From the NCBI GenBank assembly GCA_037134875.1, contig JBAXLH010000001.1, positions 5,322 through 69,321 of the forward strand: 64,000 bases of DNA, given 5' to 3'. The DNA comes from a bacterium. GTDB lineage: Bacteria > Patescibacteriota > Minisyncoccia > Phycocordibacterales > DATDWN01. Below, in pieces: positions 299-62,950 of this stretch. Both the position numbers and the translations under genes were made by a program. A model generated the notes under the pieces. That model saw only the letters and a program-made list of their open reading frames with translations, was not told the DNA's origin and did not search any database. The first letter of the stretch is position 1. Each line of letters begins with the position of its first letter.

Positions 299-402
299 TA
301 TGTTGTGTTTGGAAACTCGTTTTGTTGGGTACTTTTTTGAAAACAGAGTTTCTATTTTACTAATTTATAATTTTTGATTCAGAAACTTTTTCTCACTGTC
401 TA

Positions 403-482
403 CTTTTCCGAAAACGAAATAAATTTCTGCTGAAATTTTTTCTCGTGCTCAGCCCGTCGGCCTGCGCAATGTTTCGGAAAAG
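403..482. repeat. Palindromic intergenic element, family R3 (core ...ttcttcgtgctcRgcccgtcggcctgYgcaatg... between the arms cttttccgaaaac / gtttcggaaaag)
   Basis: The conserved core is shared with copies at 1421-1494, 19366-19459 and 33080-33215 (reverse orientation). The flanking inverted arms are unique to this copy. Confidence 0.6.
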
Positions 483-505
483 CATCCAGTTCAACAAGTT
501 TCTGA

Positions 506-1417
506 TTACTCTTTAATATTATTAAACATTTTTAATTTTTTCTCGACGACATCTTGGACTGCTTTGACAGAAGGCTTCAAAAACTTGTACGGTGCTACCT
601 CCTCTGGATTTTCTGACAGGCCTTTCATAAGTCCCTGTTTGTATGCTACACGAATTTCGGTGTTGATATGCACAATTGCAATACCGTTTGCGATTGACTG
701 TTTGAAATCATCCTCTGAGTTACCTGATCCACCATGGAGAACAAGCGGGACTTTTGTGGCCTCGGCAATTGCCTTGACCCTCTCGATGTTGAGCTTTGGA
801 TCTACGCCTCCTCGGAGCATCCCGTGGAAATTTCCAACAGCTGGAGCGAGCATATCTACACCAGTCAGGTCTACAAACTCTTTTGCCTTGATTGGATCGG
901 TCAGAGATTTCTCATCGAGAAGCACACCTTCGGGAATTGCATCCAAGACTTTTGACGATTGACCAATAAAACCGAGCTCACCCTCTACCAAAACCTCTCT
1001 GCCACAACCCCTCGCATACTCCACACACTGTTTTGCAACTTTTATATTTTCTTCCAAAGAAATATTTGCTCCATCAAAAATAACTGAATCAAATCCAGCA
1101 TCGATGACTTCTTTTACGCGATTAAAAGAGTATGTGTGGTCTGCGTTGAGAAAAATTGGATAGTTGTACTGCTCACGAGTAGCTTTGACCACTGCGGCAA
1201 CCTGTGGAATGCCGACAAAATCTCTCTCGCCCTCTGACACTCCAATAATAATCGGAACATTGAGAGATTGTGCTGCTCGGAAGACTCCCCAAAATGCTTC
1301 CATATTTGAAATATTAAAATGACCTATCGCTACTTTTTTTTCTAACGCCTCATGCACACATTCTTTTAATGTTTTCATGTCAGTAATTATACCATACAGA
1401 TTTCCCAGACAAAACAC
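506..1417 (-). CDS. fba: Class II fructose-bisphosphate aldolase
   Basis: 303 aa. The N-terminal region is ...AIGHFNISNMEAFWGVFRAAQSLNVPIIIGVSEGE... and the C-terminal motifs are LHGGSGNSEDDF, typical of FbaA/KbaY class II aldolases. Confidence 0.85.
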   Translation of the reverse strand: MFCLGNLYGIITDMKTLKECVHEALEKKVAIGHFNISNMEAFWGVFRAAQSLNVPIIIGVSEGERDFVGIPQVAAVVKATREQYNYPIFLNADHTYSFNRVKEVIDAGFDSVIFDGANISLEENIKVAKQCVEYARGCGREVLVEGELGFIGQSSKVLDAIPEGVLLDEKSLTDPIKAKEFVDLTGVDMLAPAVGNFHGMLRGGVDPKLNIERVKAIAEATKVPLVLHGGSGNSEDDFKQSIANGIAIVHINTEIRVAYKQGLMKGLSENPEEVAPYKFLKPSVKAVQDVVEKKLKMFNNIKE

Positions 1418-1420
1418 TAT

Positions 1421-1494
1421 CTTTCAAAAAACGGATAAATTTTTGCTAAAATTTTCCTGCGTAGCCAGCCTCGCTTCGGCAATGTTTTTGAAAG
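1421..1494. repeat. Palindromic intergenic element, family R3 (arms ctttcaaaaaac / gtttttgaaag)
   Basis: The core ggataaatttttgctaaaattttcct-GC hairpin-caatg is near-identical to the reverse complement of 33110-33190. It lies between the divergent fba and pfkB-like genes. Confidence 0.6.
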
Positions 1495-1535
1495 TATATT
1501 TTGTATTGTTTTTACTTGATGGTACAATTACCTAT

Positions 1536-2519
1536 ATGAAAACAGATATTCTCGCCATTGGCGATGTTGTTATAGATGCTTTTATTAGACTCAAAGAAGC
1601 AGAGGTTCGGTGTGACGAACACAAGCAAAATTGCAAGCTGTGTTTGAGTTTTGCTGACAAAGTTCCCTACGAATCCGTTGAAATTTGCAAAGCTGTGGGA
1701 AATTCTGCAAATGCATCTGTATCAGCTGCACGTCTCGGTCTCAATTCTGCACTACTCTCATACGTTGGAAACGACCGAAATGGTGATGAATGTGTTGAAG
1801 AACTCCAAAAAAACAATGTGCACACAGAATATGTCAGAAAAGAGGATGGAAAAGTGACCAACTATCACTATGTGCTCTGGTATGATGTTGATCGCACGAT
1901 TTTGGTCAAGCACGAAACATACAACTACTCTCTCGGCAACATAGAAGCTCCAAAATGGATCTATTTGAGCTCTATGGGAGAAAATTCTCTGGAATTCCAT
2001 ATGGAAATTGCTGACTTTTTGGACAAAAACCCTGACACAAAACTCGTGTTCCAACCTGGAACATTTCAAATGAAATTTGGCAAAGACGCACTCGCACGAA
2101 TCTACAAAAAAACTGATATTTTTTTCTGCAACGTTGAGGAGTCACAGAGAATTTTGGGACGCAGTGACACACGAGATCTCCCAACACTTATGAAAGAAAT
2201 GATGGCTCTTGGCCCAAAAATAGTTTGTATTACAGACGGTATCGATGGTGCATATGCATACGACGGCACACATATGTGGTTTATGTCTGTGTATCCGCAC
2301 GTACCATTCGAGAGAACGGGCGCAGGTGACGCTTTTGCATCCACTGTTACCTCGGCACTTCTTCTTGGCAAAACACTGGAGGAAGCAATGATGTGGGGCC
2401 CGATCAACTCGATGTCAGTTGTCCAAAAAGTCGGCGCACAAAAAGGCCTCCTCACTCGCGAACGACTCGAGGAATATCTTCGCAATGCTCCAACAGACTA
2501 CAAACCAAGATTATTGTAA
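1536..2519 (+). CDS. PfkB-family carbohydrate kinase (ribokinase-like)
   Basis: The start is taken at MKTDILAIGDVVID, because the upstream part of ORF 1377.. is translated repeat sequence. The C-terminal motif is GAGDAF. Confidence 0.8.
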   Translation: MKTDILAIGDVVIDAFIRLKEAEVRCDEHKQNCKLCLSFADKVPYESVEICKAVGNSANASVSAARLGLNSALLSYVGNDRNGDECVEELQKNNVHTEYVRKEDGKVTNYHYVLWYDVDRTILVKHETYNYSLGNIEAPKWIYLSSMGENSLEFHMEIADFLDKNPDTKLVFQPGTFQMKFGKDALARIYKKTDIFFCNVEESQRILGRSDTRDLPTLMKEMMALGPKIVCITDGIDGAYAYDGTHMWFMSVYPHVPFERTGAGDAFASTVTSALLLGKTLEEAMMWGPINSMSVVQKVGAQKGLLTRERLEEYLRNAPTDYKPRLL

Positions 2520-2522
2520 TTA

Positions 2523-2657
2523 TCTGAATCAAAACTCGTCGAAAACGTATTCTTTTTTGAGGCTTCGCAAGCGCGACGGCGCGAGACTTGAGAAATTTGC
2601 CAGCAGGCAAATATTCGTACTCAAAAAAGAATATGTTGAGTAAGAGTTTTGATTCAG
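2523..2657. repeat. Palindromic element, family R1 (core gaggcttcgcaRgcg...gagacttgagaaatttgccagcaggcaaatattcgtactc)
   Basis: The ~70-nt core is shared with 19741-19870 and 28829-28958. The copy-specific inverted arms are tctgaatcaaaactcgtcgaaaacgtattctttttt / aaaaaagaatatgttgagtaagagttttgattcaga. It lies between convergent genes. Confidence 0.65.
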
Positions 2658-7631: not shown

Positions 7632-7793
7632 AATTAAATCAGACTTCCTTGTACTTTTCGAAAAGCAATCTGTCTAGTCCTGGTGGACTAGCGAACTTCT
7701 CGTCGCTCAAGAAAACAATGTCGGATTACCTCGTTGTTTTCTAAGCTCCTGCGAAAGGCTTTTCTCAAAATACAAGGAAATCTGATTTAAAAA
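7632..7793. repeat. Palindromic element, family R4 (core aatctRtctagYcctgStggRctagcgaacttctcgtcgctcaagaaaacaatgtcggWttacctcSttgttttctaagctcctgcgaaagg)
   Basis: The core is shared with 62791-62950. The inner hairpin tagtcc-tgg-tggacta here corresponds to tagccc-tgc-tgggcta there, a compensatory double change. The arms aaattaaatcagacttccttgta… / …tacaaggaaatctgatttaaaaatt are copy-specific. Confidence 0.65.
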
Positions 7794-13792: not shown

Positions 13793-13957
13793 ACCGAAGT
13801 TACTTGCAAATGTTTTTTGAGCCCCCGCAGGCCGTGAGCTGGTCTTGTCAACGACCCGAGCACAGCGAGGGCTCTTGACAAGTCACGGCCGAGGACAGCC
13901 AATCAGTTCGCAGGAACTGATTGGGAAGCTCAAAAAACATTTGCAAGTAACTTCGGT
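13793..13957. repeat. Palindromic element, family R2 (core gcatccgcaggccgtgaRcWtggtcttgtcaaYgacccgagcacagcgagRgctcttgacaagtcacggccgaggac)
   Basis: The core is shared with 15935-16102 and 62097-62270. The perfect 29-nt arms accgaagttacttgcaaatgttttttgagc / gctcaaaaaacatttgcaagtaacttcggt are copy-specific. Confidence 0.7.
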
Positions 13958-15934: not shown

Positions 15935-16102
15935 AATTATAAAACACCTTTTGAATTTTTCGGAGCATCCGCAGGCCGTGAACATGGTCTTGTCAACGAC
16001 CCGAGCACAGCGAGGGCTCTTGACAAGTCACGGCCGAGGACCGAATGAGCTTTTCGCCGGAAAAGCGAATGTATCCGAAAAATTCAAAAGGTGTTTTATA
16101 AT
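15935..16102. repeat. Palindromic element, family R2
   Basis: The conserved R2 core has the copy-specific arms aattataaaacaccttttgaatttttcgga / tccgaaaaattcaaaaggtgttttataatt. The right arm overlaps the stop codon of the 16103.. gene. Confidence 0.7.
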
Positions 16103-18835
16103 TTACTTGCGATATTTCTCCTGAATCTGCCTCTCAATCTCTTCCCTATCCCCTCCGTACGTGAGATACGATAATTGTTTGAGCGAATCAATAATAGCTG
16201 GATCGCCTTTTGGTGGAAATGGTTCTTTGATGTTGAATGCTTTTTGTGAGGTACCGTTCATAAGCATTTTTACATAGGCATTCAAGTTATCAATATTCAT
16301 AAGATCTTTTGCGGTAAACACCGGAGAAAATTGTTTTTCTAAATATTCTGCGTCCTCGGCACTCACTCGAAAAGAAACAATCGAGCCAACGTTACCAAAC
16401 ACTGCATCGCGGATATTTTCCTGAAGTTGGGCAATAAACTGATGTGCAACAGTCAGTGACAGTTTGTATTTTCGTGCTTCAGAGAGAATGGATGAGATTG
16501 AATCCGTCGTAATGTTTTGGAACTCGTCGATGTAGAGATAAAACGGCGCAAAATCTTTTCCGTAGGAGTCCACACGAGAGAGAGCCGCCATCAGAATTTT
16601 GCCGACAAGAATGAGACCGATGAGATTGGCATTTATATCTCCCAATTTACCTTTGGCCAAATTGACGAGAAGTATTTTTTTGTTATCCATTATGTCGCGA
16701 AAATTGAAAGATGATTTTTCCTGTGCCACGATAGGTCGCATAACTTCGTTTGCAAGAAATACGTCAAATTTATTCACAATATATGGAACAATATTTGCAA
16801 GCGATGACTCTCCGCCAGCTTTCTCAGCAATTTCTTTCCAAAACTCTACAATGACAGGATTTTTGCATCTGGAAACTTTCAAATCCCTAAATGTTTTGTT
16901 GGACAACACCCGAGACACATCCAAAAGTGTACAGCCGGTCTCTGGATCTTCAACAACAAGCATCGCAGCATTTCTAAAATATTGCTGGAAAGCCGGTCCC
17001 ATTGACTCTGGAACATTACCATACAGTTTTTGGAATATACTCAAAAGCTCGTTGACCACAAATGTTTTCTGCTCCGGAAACTTTGGATCATACTCAAGCA
17101 TATTGAGGGCCATTGGACGCTCGGTGTAGCTTGGATCAAAATAAATCACATCTTTGTAACGGTCTTTTGGAATATTTGCCAAAATATCAATAATATCTGT
17201 ACCGTGTGGGTCAATAAAACAACATCCATTACCTCTCTCGATATCCTGAATAATAAGATTTTTGAGAAGAACAGTTTTTCCAGCACCAGTTTGTCCAATG
17301 ACATATAAATGTCTGAGTCGGTCCTGATCCTGCATAAATATTTTTGTCTCAACGTTTCGATAGTTGTTGACACCAATAAATGTACCATCTTCTCCCATAC
17401 CGAGCGGTGCTGGCGCAGAAACAGCCTGATTTTGCTTGAGCTGTGGTGATGGTGAAAGATCTGTTGTGTTGAAATGTAGTAGTGATGTTATTTCGTGCAG
17501 ATTGAGAGGCAATAGCTCGTCTGGATTGTAACTCCTGAAAGAAAAATTTCTGAACATTTTTTGCAGAGCACCTTTTTCAAGACGTTTCCACTCGAGTGAG
17601 TTGGAGACAGGATCGGAAAATTGATTGAATGATGACTCGATACTTTTCAAAATCCGCTCGGAATCCGGCCGACTCTGTGTCGAGACAACGATACGCACAT
17701 TTGTTGCTACTATTTCGCTGGCGATTTTTTGTTTAATTTTTTGAATTGCATCATTGTCCACCGGCTTCTTTTCTTCACCCTCTTTTGGTAATGGTTTGAA
17801 AATTTCTTTGACTGTTTTTGCAAAATCTCCAACAAATGTTTCTGGCAGATTGACCGCGTCTTTTGTTGGCACACCTTTTTCTATTTGCTCAATTGCATAT
17901 TTGTATTTTTTGGTGAAATAGTCCCCTTTTGGAGAGAAAACAATTTGAATTGCAGCTCCTTCGCCATCTTTTGCAATCTTTGAAAAACTGTTGATAACAA
18001 CATTCATTGGATCGTAGTCAAATGACTCGTATGTTTTGAATGGATACACTGGCTTTTCTTTTGTGGTGAGATACGAACCGAGCGAAACACCTTCTCCATT
18101 GAAAATATTGTAGTCATTTGTCGCCTCGACAACTCGCGCTGTCGAGAAAATAGAGACAATGTGTTTCTCAAAAAGCTGTTTGAATTCATCGGGCACCGCA
18201 ACATAAAATACAAATTGGTTACTGCCATTTGCGTTTGCAATTTCGAGTGCAATATAATTTTCTTTTTCTTTTTTTGAAACAACCGAAAGCATTCCAGCAT
18301 AAAACTGCTCCATACTGGAAATCACTTCTTTGAGTCCTTTTTGTTGTTTTTCTTTTTCTTCTTCAAGAAGCACAACCTCATATAAAGTCATTCCAACACC
18401 GCGGAAATCTCTCTCGGAAAGGTTGAGATCATTTGGCTTGTATCCACTTTTTACAAATTGCACCAAAAAACGATGAAAATCATCATCGAGATGAGGGTCT
18501 TTCATTTCAGACAAAACAGAAAGTGCGTTTTTCACACCTTTTTCATTGAGTATTCCGAGGAGCTCCTCCATCTTTTTGTCGTGTCGCTCCGGAGCGAGAT
18601 TCAAAACAATTGACTCAGCATCAGCCTTTGAAAGTGCATACGTATCCGAGAGAACATCTTTTGATAATGTGTCTTTATATTTTGAAATTTGTTCGCGAAC
18701 AACGGTGTCGGTATCCACTTTTTGATCTCGTTCGTGAAGCTGTTTTTCTTTTTCGGCGATTTTACCACGCAAGAAATTTATTTCCTCTTCGGGTGATGTA
18801 AAGCGAGAAGTATTTTCGCTCAAAACTTTTTCCAT
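16103..18835 (-). CDS. VirD4/TraG-like (type IV coupling-protein / DUF87-type) P-loop ATPase
   Basis: 910 aa. The Walker A motif is GQTGAGKTV. The C-terminal …YLYIDEFQNITT…LSLTVAHQFIAQL… resembles the TraD/TraG C-terminal region. The family assignment is tentative. Confidence 0.55.
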   Translation of the reverse strand: MEKVLSENTSRFTSPEEEINFLRGKIAEKEKQLHERDQKVDTDTVVREQISKYKDTLSKDVLSDTYALSKADAESIVLNLAPERHDKKMEELLGILNEKGVKNALSVLSEMKDPHLDDDFHRFLVQFVKSGYKPNDLNLSERDFRGVGMTLYEVVLLEEEKEKQQKGLKEVISSMEQFYAGMLSVVSKKEKENYIALEIANANGSNQFVFYVAVPDEFKQLFEKHIVSIFSTARVVEATNDYNIFNGEGVSLGSYLTTKEKPVYPFKTYESFDYDPMNVVINSFSKIAKDGEGAAIQIVFSPKGDYFTKKYKYAIEQIEKGVPTKDAVNLPETFVGDFAKTVKEIFKPLPKEGEEKKPVDNDAIQKIKQKIASEIVATNVRIVVSTQSRPDSERILKSIESSFNQFSDPVSNSLEWKRLEKGALQKMFRNFSFRSYNPDELLPLNLHEITSLLHFNTTDLSPSPQLKQNQAVSAPAPLGMGEDGTFIGVNNYRNVETKIFMQDQDRLRHLYVIGQTGAGKTVLLKNLIIQDIERGNGCCFIDPHGTDIIDILANIPKDRYKDVIYFDPSYTERPMALNMLEYDPKFPEQKTFVVNELLSIFQKLYGNVPESMGPAFQQYFRNAAMLVVEDPETGCTLLDVSRVLSNKTFRDLKVSRCKNPVIVEFWKEIAEKAGGESSLANIVPYIVNKFDVFLANEVMRPIVAQEKSSFNFRDIMDNKKILLVNLAKGKLGDINANLIGLILVGKILMAALSRVDSYGKDFAPFYLYIDEFQNITTDSISSILSEARKYKLSLTVAHQFIAQLQENIRDAVFGNVGSIVSFRVSAEDAEYLEKQFSPVFTAKDLMNIDNLNAYVKMLMNGTSQKAFNIKEPFPPKGDPAIIDSLKQLSYLTYGGDREEIERQIQEKYRK

Positions 18836-18913: not shown

Positions 18914-19726
18914 TCACTTCCTCAAATAATACAACCTCATCTCTTCTGGAAATCGCTCAATGGAATATCGTAGAGCGGTGCGTGGAATATGGGAGTAGTG
19001 TTTGTCCAAAAATTTTCGCAATGTCCCCTCGTCTTTTTTGCCGACTTCACGGAGCATCCAACCAACAGCTTTGTGGATCAGATCATGTGTGTCAGAAAGT
19101 AACATCTCTGCGATCTTGAGTGTGTCACCAAAATCGCCCTGACGTATGAAAGTGAGCGTTGAAATAATAGAGATTCTCTTTTTCCACAAATCTTTCGACT
19201 CAGCAAATGTGTACAAAATATCTCGAGGTTTATCCAGCAGATATGTTCCGACAATCTGCGGAGCTGACAAATCCACCAAATCCCAATTGTTTATGTATTT
19301 TGTGTTTTTAATGTACAGGTCAAAAATTTGTTTTTGAACTCTTAACATACCAGATTTCTGTCTCAACATATGCTGGTCTGAAAACAGAATATTCGCCTGC
19401 TGGCGAATTTCTTCGTGCTCGGCCCGTCGGCCTGTGCAATGTTTCAGACCAGCATATGTCTTCGACGAAATCTGATACTTTTGAATCAAAATCAACAGGG
19501 CAACCATTCGACATTCATGAATTTCTGATTTGAGTAGCTTTACAACATCCGCAAATGGTAAATCGACAAATTGTTTGGCGACGTTGCGCTGATCTGGCAT
19601 TACAATTCCCAAAAAAACATCTCCTTCGCCATACTCCCCTTTGCCAGTCTTAAAAAACCGAGAAAGTATTTTGGCTTTCCCTTTACTCGACTTCTTTTTC
19701 AATTTTGAAATTAGGTTATTGTACAT
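18914..19726 (-). CDS. DNA alkylation repair protein (AlkD/AlkC-like HEAT-repeat glycosylase) carrying an in-frame repeat-element insertion
   Basis: The N-terminus is FFKTGKGEYGEGDVFLGI and the C-terminus is WMLREVGKK…RTALRYSIERF. The reading frame continues through the R3 element at 19366-19459. Confidence 0.7.
   Translation of the reverse strand: MYNNLISKLKKKSSKGKAKILSRFFKTGKGEYGEGDVFLGIVMPDQRNVAKQFVDLPFADVVKLLKSEIHECRMVALLILIQKYQISSKTYAGLKHCTGRRAEHEEIRQQANILFSDQHMLRQKSGMLRVQKQIFDLYIKNTKYINNWDLVDLSAPQIVGTYLLDKPRDILYTFAESKDLWKKRISIISTLTFIRQGDFGDTLKIAEMLLSDTHDLIHKAVGWMLREVGKKDEGTLRKFLDKHYSHIPRTALRYSIERFPEEMRLYYLRK
19366..19459. repeat. Palindromic element, family R3, inserted in frame within the alkD-like CDS
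   Basis: The arms are acatatgctggtctgaaaac / gtttcagaccagcatatgt and the core is …ttcttcgtgctcggcccgtcggcctgtgcaatg. It is translated as …HCTGRRAEHEEIRQQANILFSDQHMLRQKSGM…. Confidence 0.65.
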
Positions 19727-19740
19727 GGTGGTAGTATTTC

Positions 19741-19870
19741 TCTTTAATTTCGTTGACTCAAAATTTTTTTTGAGGCTTCGCAGGCGGGTAGCCGAGACTT
19801 GAGAAATTTGCCAGCAGGCAAATATTCGTACTCAAAAAAAGTTTTGAGGAAAAAGAAATTAAAGAGAAAT
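19741..19870. repeat. Palindromic element, family R1
   Basis: The R1 core has the copy-specific arms tctttaatttcgttgactcaaaattttttttgag / ctcaaaaaaagttttgaggaaaaagaaattaaaga. Confidence 0.65.
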
Positions 19871-36303: not shown

Positions 36304-36505
36304 AGGTTTTTAAAAGTTTGCGAGTTTTGTAAATTAAAACTACGGCGAGATCATTTTCTTTTCTGAATTATAGTTTTACGACCCTTGTCTCGGCACAGTA
36401 ATTTTGGAGCACGCGATAAGTCCTGCTGGACTTTCGCTCAATCTCGCGCCGTCGCGCTCCGAAGTCTCCAAAATCACTGCGCCTTCGACGTGGTCGTAAA
36501 TCTTT

Positions 36506-45012: not shown

Positions 45013-45366
45013 TCCGCGGTAGCTCAGTGGTAGAGCGATCGCCTGTAAAGTGCTTGCAGCTTCCTAAAGTAATTTAGGCTGAAAAATGAGGTGAATTCGG
45101 GGAAACCCCACGTGGGCAATCCCGAGCCAAGCCACTTTCAAGTTTTGATTTTTTATATTTAGAAATTAAAACTTGAAAGTGGAAGGTGTAGAGACTATCT
45201 CGAAAGAGAGTAGTTATTATTTTTCAAATAAAATAATCACGAAGCGCCCCACATCCCACTTGTTTATCAAAAATAGATAAAGGATGATGATATAGTCCAT
45301 ACCAAAGGCAACTTTGGAATCAATGTAAGCGATTGGTCGTAGGTTCGATCCCTACCCGCGGAGCCA
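45013..45366 (+). tRNA. tRNA-Asn (GUU) interrupted by a group I intron in the anticodon loop; CCA encoded
   Basis: The 5' exon TCCGCGGTAGCTCAGTGGTAGAGCGATCGCCTGT spans 45013-45046. The 3' exon TAAGCGATTGGTCGTAGGTTCGATCCCTACCCGCGGAG+CCA spans 45326-45366. The splice satisfies the group I rule (5' exon ends in U, intron ends in G). The alternative reading is Tyr(GUA) if the boundaries are shifted by 3 nt. Confidence 0.6.
45047..45325 (+). ncRNA. Group I self-splicing intron (no ORF)
   Basis: About 279 nt. It contains the conserved group I core element GATGATATAGTCC (consensus AAGAUAUAGUCC, P7/S region) near 45283-45298 and ends in G. Confidence 0.65.
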
Positions 45367-45744
45367 AAAAGTTTAAACCCCGAAAGGGGTTTTTACTTTT
45401 CTTGGCTCCGTGGAGCAGAACAGGGTTCTGCGTGTAGGGATCGAACAGTTTGTCGGTTTACAAGTTTAGCAAAACTTGTCGACAAACTGGTGGCCAGGAT
45501 TTTCTGTTTTGACGAAAACAGAAAATCTGAGGCCGATACCCCTACCCGCGGAGCCAAAAAGTTTAAACCCCGAAAGGGGTTTTTACTTTTCTTGGCTCCG
45601 TGGAGCAGAACAGGGTTCTGCGTGTAGGGATCGAACAGTTTGTCGGTTTACAAGTTTAGCAAAACTTGTCGACAAACTGGTGGCCAGGATTTTCTGTTTT
45701 GACGAAAACAGAAAATCTGAGGCCGATACCCCTACCCGCGGAGC
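45367..45744. repeat. Tandem direct repeat, 2 x 190 nt; each unit ends in a copy of the tRNA-Asn 3' end (cctacccgcggagcc) and begins with its inverted copy (ggctccgtggag)
   Basis: The two units are identical (45367-45556 and 45557-45744). Each has a terminator hairpin aaaccccgaaaggggttttt, an inverted degenerate T-arm-like segment (gtagggatcgaac) and two long hairpins. Confidence 0.8.
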
Positions 45745-62096: not shown

Positions 62097-62270
62097 TCAA
62101 AATTTAATTGAGACTACATCCTTTTTGGAGCATCCGCAGGCCGTGAGCATGGTCTTGTCAATGACCCGAGCACAGCGAGAGCTCTTGACAAGTCACGGCC
62201 GAGGACCGAATGAGTTTTTCGCTGGAAAAGCGAGTGTATCTGAAAAGGATGTGGTTTCGATTAAATTTTG
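62097..62270. repeat. Palindromic element, family R2, filling the spacer between the hydrogenase small- and large-subunit genes
   Basis: The R2 core has the arms caaaatttaattgagactacatcc / ggatgtggtttcgattaaattttg. Confidence 0.65.
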
Positions 62271-62790: not shown

Positions 62791-62950
62791 CAAAAACCGA
62801 TAGGAGCATATCTTTCACGGAGCAATCTATCTAGCCCTGCTGGGCTAGCGAACTTCTCGTCGCTCAAGAAAACAATGTCGGTTTACCTCCTTGTTTTCTA
62901 AGCTCCTGCGAAAGGCTCCGGAAAAGATATGCTCCTATCGGTTTTTTAAA
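62791..62950. repeat. Palindromic element, family R4
   Basis: The R4 core has the arms caaaaaccgataggagcatatctttcacggagc / gctccggaaaagatatgctcctatcggtttttt. Confidence 0.65.

Follow-up and report, generated by a model that had tools for sequence, protein, structure and literature searches.

A 64,000-nucleotide stretch of the genome of a bacterium of the Patescibacteriota (contig JBAXLH010000001.1 of assembly GCA_037134875.1, hereafter the window) carries a gene for an alkD-family DNA glycosylase, which we call alkD, into whose reading frame a palindromic DNA repeat has been inserted. The repeat appears to be a non-autonomous, hairpin-forming element that sits in a loop-coding part of the gene and behaves like the palindromic elements of Rickettsia and like intragenic copies of repetitive extragenic palindromes (REPs).

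The palindromic segment of alkD

The segment in question, 123 nt at 19352-19474, is read in the alkD frame as QISSKTYAGLKHCTGRRAEHEEIRQQANILFSDQHMLRQKS, that is, as 41 stop-free codons, and the alkD mRNA carries the reverse complement of the forward orientation assigned to the element by the covariance model. When the alkD product is aligned with 18 homologues, all 18 show a gap of 30-39 columns at this place, between the conserved ILIxKY and IFxFY helices (39 columns against most homologues, 30 against the closest, P0002). Among the matches listed, other than the query's own entry (n=119), the homologues measure 227-264 aa as compared with 270 aa here, the closest being 63-69% identical. An in-frame element inside this gene had been predicted from the DNA sequence, and the prediction fares well on several counts: the insertion, of about 41 residues, falls in a loop between two helices and is lacking in every aligned homologue, its length is a multiple of three, and the peptide quoted at the time agrees with the translation of the open reading frame (ORF).

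The segment also has relatives in the DNA around it. Compared with the intergenic repeats of the window it gives an nhmmer E-value of 1e-19, and the covariance model of the repeat family matches it at 19371-19474 with 103 bits (E 2e-27); the alkD segment is thus DNA-homologous to those repeats and is therefore not native protein sequence. The G+C fraction is 0.48 in the insert and 0.57 in its core, as opposed to 0.39 in the remainder of the alkD gene. Five contigs, drawn from three ENA samples (ERZ27300010, ERZ27300137 and ERZ27300065), JGI sample 3300020163 and the NCBI metagenome-assembled genome (MAG) GCA_964547445.1, contain the insert DNA in base-for-base identical form, which excludes an assembly artefact.

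The palindrome itself lies exactly where the original prediction placed it, at 19366-19459, with perfect 18-nt arms (19366-19383 and 19442-19459) separated by 58 nt. At 94 nt its length is not a multiple of three, and its arrival alone would have shifted the reading frame; the inserted unit must therefore be a larger one, so that the expected in-frame insertion stands while the expected size of ~93-96 nt gives way to a unit of ~123 nt. A second, outer inverted repeat (19348-19358 and 19467-19477) is found beyond an internal loop of 7 nt per side, and the extended palindrome measures 124 nt (19351-19474). In the resulting hairpin, an outer stem of 8 bp is followed by a small internal loop and then by a perfect stem of 18 bp, which encloses a core of 58 nt containing two small hairpins (Table 1). 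Folded as single-stranded DNA, the 136 nt from 19345 to 19480 reach -40 and -41 kcal/mol on the two strands, whereas dinucleotide shuffles reach -13 and -14 kcal/mol (z of -9 and -12). The alkD palindrome is not a product of chance.

The host ORF is intact and of the predicted 270 aa. PF08713 (DNA_alkylation, Pfam) spans it end to end with an E-value of 3e-60, and residues 6-259 correspond to profile positions 2-213, so that 254 residues stand for 212 positions and about 42 residues are surplus. The N and C termini are normal and no lesion other than the insert was seen in the protein. In the 19-sequence alignment (the query and its 18 homologues), W148, D149, D152 and W223 are among the invariant columns. 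Three of these, W148, D152 and W223, align with the WWDSVD and GW motifs of Bacillus cereus AlkD, and positions of this type we take to be the active-site Trp, Asp and Trp of AlkD. The B. cereus enzyme is the best solved relative both by sequence and by fold (Foldseek TM score of 0.78 on the target). With the PF08713 domain, the AlkD fold and the W-D...D and GW motifs, the alkD product belongs to the AlkD/AlkC family of HEAT-like-repeat DNA glycosylases. An identical 270-aa protein occurs in an index of 5.8 billion proteins under the NCBI name 'MAG: DNA alkylation repair protein [bacterium]'.

A model of the protein computed with AlphaFold2 from the same alignment has a mean predicted local distance difference test score (pLDDT) of 89.4 and a predicted template-modelling score of 0.84, with residues outside the insert mostly above a pLDDT of 90. 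A Foldseek search with this model recovered the AlkD fold, B. cereus AlkD being the top match. The insert was modelled as extensions of both flanking helices (residues 70-96 and 106-140), joined by a loop at residues 97-105 and protruding from the body; the 10-residue blocks that cover residues 91-130 have pLDDT values of 57, 56, 73 and 87. Judged by helix topology, the insert would lie at the end of helix 128-140 that is remote from the catalytic W148 and D152, and the model suggests that the enzyme probably still works and bears the insert as a floppy helical appendage. If translated, the insert would give rise to peptides such as HCTGRRAEHEEIR or QQANILFSDQHMLR.

A repeat family in the window and in other Patescibacteria

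Copies of the repeat were collected by repeat finding, with nhmmer and with covariance model R1. The window holds eight solid copies, seven of them intergenic and the alkD copy the sole intragenic one (Table 1); the window and the fetched loci together yield 42 non-redundant copies, and 29 non-identical copies make up the three-way-junction alignment. Common to the copies is a core of ~60 nt composed of a hairpin P2 (ATTYGCC-TGCT-GGCRAAT), a linker TTCT(Y)C and a GC-rich bipartite hairpin P3, often with a CGTC loop, with ACAGAAT and TGCGCAAKG as junction sequences. The core is closed by a long stem, P1, to which many copies add an internal loop (CTCA and TCGAC sides) and an outer stem. Across the copies the centre is conserved and the arms are copy-specific. 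The P1 arm sequence of the alkD copy has no second occurrence in the 64-kb window, and in intergenic copies, which pair perfectly over 20-35 bp, each copy has its own sequence in the outer 10-25 bp of the arms, again without a mismatch. The CAGA...TCTG termini of the alkD copy are found again in one copy within an mnmA gene (locus L019, below) and in the window copy at 381-506.

Table 1. The alkD ORF, the parts of its palindromic element and the sibling copies of the repeat in the window; bit scores are those of the covariance model
Feature	Position	Strand	Evidence
alkD-family DNA glycosylase ORF, 270 aa, intact, insert-bearing	18914..19726	-	ORF list, PF08713
Inserted palindromic element, R3 family, 123 nt, codons Q85-S125 of alkD	19352..19474	+ (covariance-model orientation)	
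Outer stem, left arm CAGATTTC; partner 19467-19474	19351..19358	.	inverted-repeat search, folding
Internal loop, left side TGTCTCA; CTCA motif found again in other copies	19359..19365	.	
P1 stem, left arm, 18 nt; 100% complementary to 19442-19459	19366..19383	.	
Conserved core, three-way junction	19384..19441	+	alignment of 29 copies, covariation
P2 hairpin ATTCGCC TGCT GGCGAAT, inside core	19391..19408		
P3 hairpin, GC-rich, GTGC-TC-GGCC CGTC GGCC-T-GTGC, inside core	19415..19437		
P1 stem, right arm	19442..19459	.	
Internal loop, right side CTTCGAC; TCGAC motif found again in other copies	19460..19466	.	
Outer stem, right arm GAAATCTG	19467..19474	.	
Sibling copy, intergenic; direct-repeat partner of the alkD copy (72% over 95 nt)	401..504	+	84.8 bits
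Sibling copy, upstream of the true pfkB start (M54 of ORF 1377..2519)	1417..1517	+	56.4 bits
Sibling copy, between convergent genes	2530..2631	-	82 bits
Sibling copy, in the spacer immediately before the alkD start codon; own long arms 19736-19771 and 19835-19870	19743..19843	-	62.8 bits
Sibling copy, upstream of mraZ	28832..28933	-	71.2 bits
Sibling copy, perfect 32-bp stem	33087..33188	-	74.8 bits
Sibling copy, intergenic, more divergent	36398..36497	+	42.5 bits

The pairing of the core is maintained through sequence change. In the 29-copy alignment, 25 of 30 base pairs show double changes, and paired cells make up 83.9% of the total, compared with 66.8% after shuffling and at most 53.5% with the partners slid. 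At one P2 position C-G and U-A alternate 14:14, and a divergent subfamily has P2 fully re-paired. A hand count from the pair table gives ~22 G-U and 21 A-C wobble pairs in P1, with no strand bias; the equal wobble counts, together with equally strong folding on both strands, indicate a structure that belongs to the DNA palindrome and not clearly to a single transcript. Rfam 15 contains no family that matches the element at gathering thresholds, and a search at E-values up to 10 returns only chance matches to long-hairpin microRNA models.

The family is also poor in stop codons. Over both strands of the 42 non-redundant copies, stop trinucleotides number 122, against 229.8 +/- 9.6 in dinucleotide shuffles, a depletion whose z-value is overstated because the copies are related. 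Of 252 frames 153 are open, the shuffled expectation being 98 +/- 6. The consensus core is stop-free in all frames, and the 123-nt alkD copy leaves four of its six frames open. With a unit whose length is a multiple of three, about two thirds of insertions would leave the host ORF open.

Outside the window, the exact 22-mer of P2 was found at 14 places in species-representative genomes, nearly all of them MAGs labelled as Patescibacteria lineages (Giovannonibacteria, Taylorbacteria, Nomurabacteria, Paceibacterota and 'Saccharibacteria'), and at 29 metagenome loci, of which three match by chance. Several copies lie in frame within genes identified with Pfam: the methylpurine glycosylase gene MPG (L007/L047 and L028), mnmA at a site A (L019, L020/L033 and L049) and a site B (L012), uvrC (L013) and recG (L025). 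In protein alignments each of these copies is an insertion relative to the other sequences. The tolerance of in-frame copies that the original prediction had drawn by analogy with Rickettsia thus extends to further genes of Patescibacteria.

The in-gene copies use four of the six possible frames and both orientations. One frame gives the peptide ..RRxExEEIRQQANI.. in alkD, L019, L007 and L025, another gives ..EYSPAGEFLRA.. in L020, L049 and L013, and ..RNSPAGEY.. and ..NIRLLANF.. are read in L012 and L028, respectively. Searched against the index of 5.8 billion proteins, a profile of the element-encoded peptide found only 12 tiny ORFs, called on intergenic copies, and a search of 1.84 billion cluster representatives gave 16 hits, mostly tiny ORFs as well. 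Public 'hypothetical proteins' of 31-143 aa (P0121-P0137) are apparent translations of repeat copies, as judged by a shared ..EI[RC]QQANI.. peptide; gene calls of this type are probably annotation noise that a repeat mask could remove.

When orthologous sites of different species are compared in MnmA and MPG, the element as a whole proves to be reverse-complemented. Identity in inverted alignment exceeds that in the same orientation for MPG L007 and L028 (98/114 as opposed to 70/114), for MnmA L019 and L020 (99/127 as opposed to 76/127) and for MnmA L019 and L049 (116/124 as opposed to 53/124). In the last pair the mnmA sequences outside the insert are 91.6% identical in amino acids and 70.5% identical at four-fold sites, and the two elements differ at one position in the inner 108 nt, the remaining seven differences falling in the 8-bp outer stems. 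Where P2 shows compensatory C-G to T-A changes, the encoded amino acids change as well (R/C, S/L, E/K). Given the flipped orthologous copies and these amino-acid-altering changes, the peptide is not the conserved thing.

Inserts of ~40 aa occur in the MnmA beta-turn that follows ATGHYAxVKN in 21 of the 120 closest homologues (P0138-P0257), and they are of many sequence types. On a neighbour-joining tree their presence is scattered, requiring 16 parsimony changes as compared with 19.5 for random labels, a distribution that is suggestive only, since the tree is poorly resolved at these distances. Sporadic extra segments are seen in MnmA at other sites and at N-termini as well. Taken together, flips and scatter argue that the element entered tolerant loops repeatedly, flipped in place or did both, and they argue against any selected peptide.

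The original prediction had called the elements mobile and recently active. Movement of the family is indicated in related genomes, where the flips provide what appears to be the best evidence of recent events. For the alkD copy itself recent activity is not supported: five contigs carry the identical insert, and the nearest insert-free AlkD is 63-69% identical.

Insertion and its alternatives

We propose that a non-autonomous element would have arrived at alkD by transposition, with its single-stranded DNA hairpin recognised by a structure-specific enzyme for which the TGCT-loop hairpin and the junction sequences would form the recognition part. The hairpin form is proposed as the target because the hairpin loops and junctions, and not the termini, are conserved. 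Self-templated correction of quasi-palindromes might keep the arms complementary. Owing to a unit of 123 nt (41 codons) in a family that is stop-poor on both strands, alkD stays open and the element would be translated, harmlessly, as a 41-residue appendage, probably a protruding helical hairpin, with the AlkD fold and catalytic residues left intact.

Several points weigh against this proposal. No target-site duplication is present in the three sibling copies with readable borders (L006, L010 and L016), and the ATAC found on both sides at alkD is incompatible with an insertion of 3n. No linked transposase was found among 12 window ORFs scanned with Pfam; with neither duplication nor transposase to hand, it is the distribution of the copies that makes the case for mobility. 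None of the five contigs holds an alkD allele free of the insert, and the protein index offers no close orthologue beyond the next best matches cited above, so that the exact borders of the insertion are uncertain by a few bases. The copy-specific yet perfectly paired outer arms are not explained by simple cut-and-paste or copy-and-paste transposition. Deep conservation of the core, with a 99% identical copy in two genomes whose four-fold sites are ~70% identical, could instead mean function. The catalogue of in-frame copies is biased, since open frames spanning copies were what was sought. Lastly, it is from sequence and model that we infer both translation of the insert and a working insert-bearing enzyme.

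Candidate parents and alternative origins of the element were also considered. An IS110-like ORF at 30902-32443 was rejected as the parent element, since its flanks are without similarity to the repeat and the region gives no covariance-model hit. This ORF (513 aa, reverse strand) matches Pfam Transposase_20 of the IS110/IS116/IS902 family with 26 bits against a cut-off of 21.3 bits; repeats of 177-250 nt, partly inverted, flank it at 29906-30527 and 32552-32820, and the region may be an IS110-type element whose non-coding ends are structured. A second idea, that of a native arm from which the opposite arm was copied in inverted form during insertion, fails for the coding copies, where the excess of 39-41 aa over typical homologues covers both arms. 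At alkD, the residues adjoining the insert (VQKQIFDLY) already align with the native sequence of homologues. With both arms extra relative to homologues, the arms of coding copies came with the element; for the long copy-specific arms of intergenic copies the idea may yet hold. An integron attC site, suggested by an ACTCAAC that fits RYYYAAC, was dismissed on the grounds that the opposite side is not complementary and that the copies are scattered singly among housekeeping genes. In a comparison by eye, the junction strands do not fit a hammerhead ribozyme core.

A bolder version of the proposal, which we advance only tentatively and consider rather unlikely, is that the repeat is an undescribed hairpin mobile element found across Patescibacteria and built for life inside genes, being 3n in length, stop-poor in all frames and translatable either way, and that it re-enters or flips within the same housekeeping-gene loops. 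The MnmA inserts in 21 of 120 homologues, their scatter over the tree and the 99% identical inverted copy at 30% silent divergence would fit such an element. Its T shape and its flip and flop orientations might then reflect a single-strand nick-and-refold mechanism resembling rolling-hairpin resolution.

Less probable again is that the element serves as a functional nucleic-acid signal, either a protein-binding DNA hairpin or an RNA element of processing, stability or termination, and that the alkD copy regulates its gene, perhaps as a target of RNase III or as a brake on translation. Across several Patescibacteria classes the core keeps its sequence and structure, with covariation; the single difference in 108 inner positions spans genomes whose mnmA four-fold sites are 70.5% identical; most copies occupy short spacers beside gene ends; and pairing is kept even in coding sequence. 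All of this would suit a signal. A single RNA function, however, is hard to reconcile with P1 wobble pairs free of strand bias and with copies in both orientations relative to transcription, and Rfam holds no match. The copies also occupy sites unrelated to one another, among them loop-coding stretches in five or more gene families, and their stop depletion in all frames suits survival inside ORFs, not regulation.

It is quite improbable that alkD is decaying, in the sense that the enzyme lost its activity through the insertion and that only the 3n length of a stop-poor element keeps the frame open. Reduced genomes often lack DNA-repair genes, which are dispensable; the catalytic W148/D152 motif follows ~20 residues after the insert, which is modelled with low confidence; and a frame that this element would leave open about two times in three is by its openness weak evidence of function. 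Against decay, the gene has no other lesion, the invariant alignment residues are (by construction) present, the termini are normal and the model exceeds a pLDDT of 90 outside the insert. Moreover, insert-bearing MnmA and MPG genes are otherwise conserved across species (91.6% amino-acid identity for L019 and L049), from which it follows that such inserts are tolerated in working genes.

That the segment is a native lineage-specific loop or an assembly artefact, with its likeness to the repeats a coincidence, is scarcely credible: the length of this region does vary among homologues, from 10 to 19 residues, but the covariance-model and nhmmer scores, the perfect 18-bp stem, the identity of five contigs and the lack of the segment in every homologue all speak against it.

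Known palindromic repeats, significance and further features of the window

The Rickettsia palindromic elements (RPE-1 and relatives) are palindromic repeats that add peptides in frame to the proteins of their host genes (Ogata et al., 2000; summary in PMC10969869). Like the family described here, they are palindromes of ~100-150 bp that a small genome carries in many copies, between genes as well as within unrelated housekeeping genes, where the frame is maintained and the host protein gains a peptide. The Rickettsia peptides occupy points at which the fold tolerates them, and the same may hold for the family described here. At the alkD locus the same behaviour is seen in the 124-nt palindrome, the eight copies in 64 kb and the in-frame, stop-free peptide that orthologues do not have. 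To our knowledge, no transposase is known for either group and no sequence relationship exists between them. The two differ in host, Patescibacteria rather than Rickettsiales, and in what is conserved, which in the alkD family is the central three-way junction, the arms differing between copies. In addition, the alkD family uses at least four of six frames and both orientations and so has no single conserved peptide, and orthologous copies are flipped.

Di Nocera et al. (2013; PMC3733652) noted that, of the intragenic copies of REPs of the GTAG/CGTC superfamilies, many are located in genes of DNA replication and repair (uvrA/B/D, recBCD, polA, dnaE) or in genes related to tRNA. These too are small hairpin repeats, mostly extragenic and in part within ORFs, and the host genes of the alkD family (AlkD, MPG, UvrC, RecG, MnmA) repeat the same repair and tRNA pattern. 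The P2 stem of the alkD family starts with A-T pairs and has a 4-nt loop, as in CGTC REPs, whereas no unpaired GTAG/CGTC head of the kind that defines REPs (PMC3733652) adjoins the P2 or the P3 stem; CGTC occurs as the P3 loop, and some copies have a CGTC/TGTC-like motif 6-8 nt 3' of P2. Nor does the composite unit of ~123 nt resemble the 20-40-nt hairpin or head-to-head dimer of REPs.

Bacterial miniature inverted-repeat transposable elements (Correia, ERIC, BOX) share small size, non-coding character, inverted-repeat ends, high copy number and occasional in-frame fusions to host genes (PMC10969869). Such elements possess conserved terminal repeats that match those of a parent insertion sequence, together with a target-site duplication, whereas in the alkD family the termini vary, no duplication was seen and the window contains no insertion sequence with matching ends. 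A structural analogy, and that only, links the family to the T-shaped hairpin termini of parvoviruses and adeno-associated virus, in which a long stem is likewise capped by two small hairpins and two reverse-complement orientations exist. Those hairpins are the ends of linear single-stranded viral genomes, are processed by an HUH Rep nickase and occur in flip and flop orientations. The repeats of the alkD family are internal and chromosomal, and a Rep-like gene was not identified.

A full-text search of an incomplete literature collection found no description of such elements in Patescibacteria or the candidate phyla radiation (CPR). The alkD family is a new family, in a new phylum, of a known behaviour, that of selfish palindromic repeats tolerated in frame. 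Patescibacteria genomes are very small and gene-dense, and yet the window carries one such repeat per ~8 kb and relatives tolerate copies inside conserved enzymes. Many species with inserts at the same loops constitute a larger natural data set, and unexplained extra segments of ~40 residues in CPR proteins can be repeat-derived and not functional domains. Gene callers yield spurious small ORFs on intergenic copies, which covariance model R1 can mask. Since the bias toward repair and tRNA-modification genes repeats the REP pattern of Proteobacteria (PMC3733652), it becomes testable in a second system.

The sibling copy at 19743-19843 occupies most of the spacer between a diacylglycerol-kinase gene and alkD, and one of its arms ends ~10-20 nt upstream of the alkD start codon (19726), thereby overlapping any ribosome-binding or promoter signals that alkD may use. 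On the other side, directly downstream of alkD, a 910-aa ORF (16103-18835, reverse strand) carries DUF8128 and a weak TraG-D_C match in precomputed Pfam annotation and resembles a coupling-protein-like ATPase; the neighbourhood is otherwise of a housekeeping kind. In the MPG gene of metagenome contig L028 (6981-7718, reverse strand), a second in-frame insert of 24 aa (GPDPLEASPGVTAVPSRLRRGPLT) directly follows the palindromic element and does not occur in the L007 orthologue.

Two further families of spacer repeats, of ~100-125 nt, are present in the window, one at 13812-13936, 15957-16081 and 62122-62246 and the other at 7664-7760 and 62821-62917, and every copy in both sits between long, near-perfect inverted repeats of its own (30-42 nt). 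The second of these families has a CC-TGCT-GG hairpin and a TTCTCGTCGCTC linker as in the alkD element, with a weak covariance-model hit of 20.6 bits, and may be a distant relative of it. Finally, within 45015-45729, a tRNA gene missed by ARAGORN seems to be interrupted by a group I intron at 45042-45318 (Rfam, 70 bits). This tRNA has its T-arm, acceptor and CCA near 45343-45366; after the intron comes a perfect tandem duplication of 190 nt (45350-45539 and 45540-45729), in which the 3' end of the tRNA is repeated.

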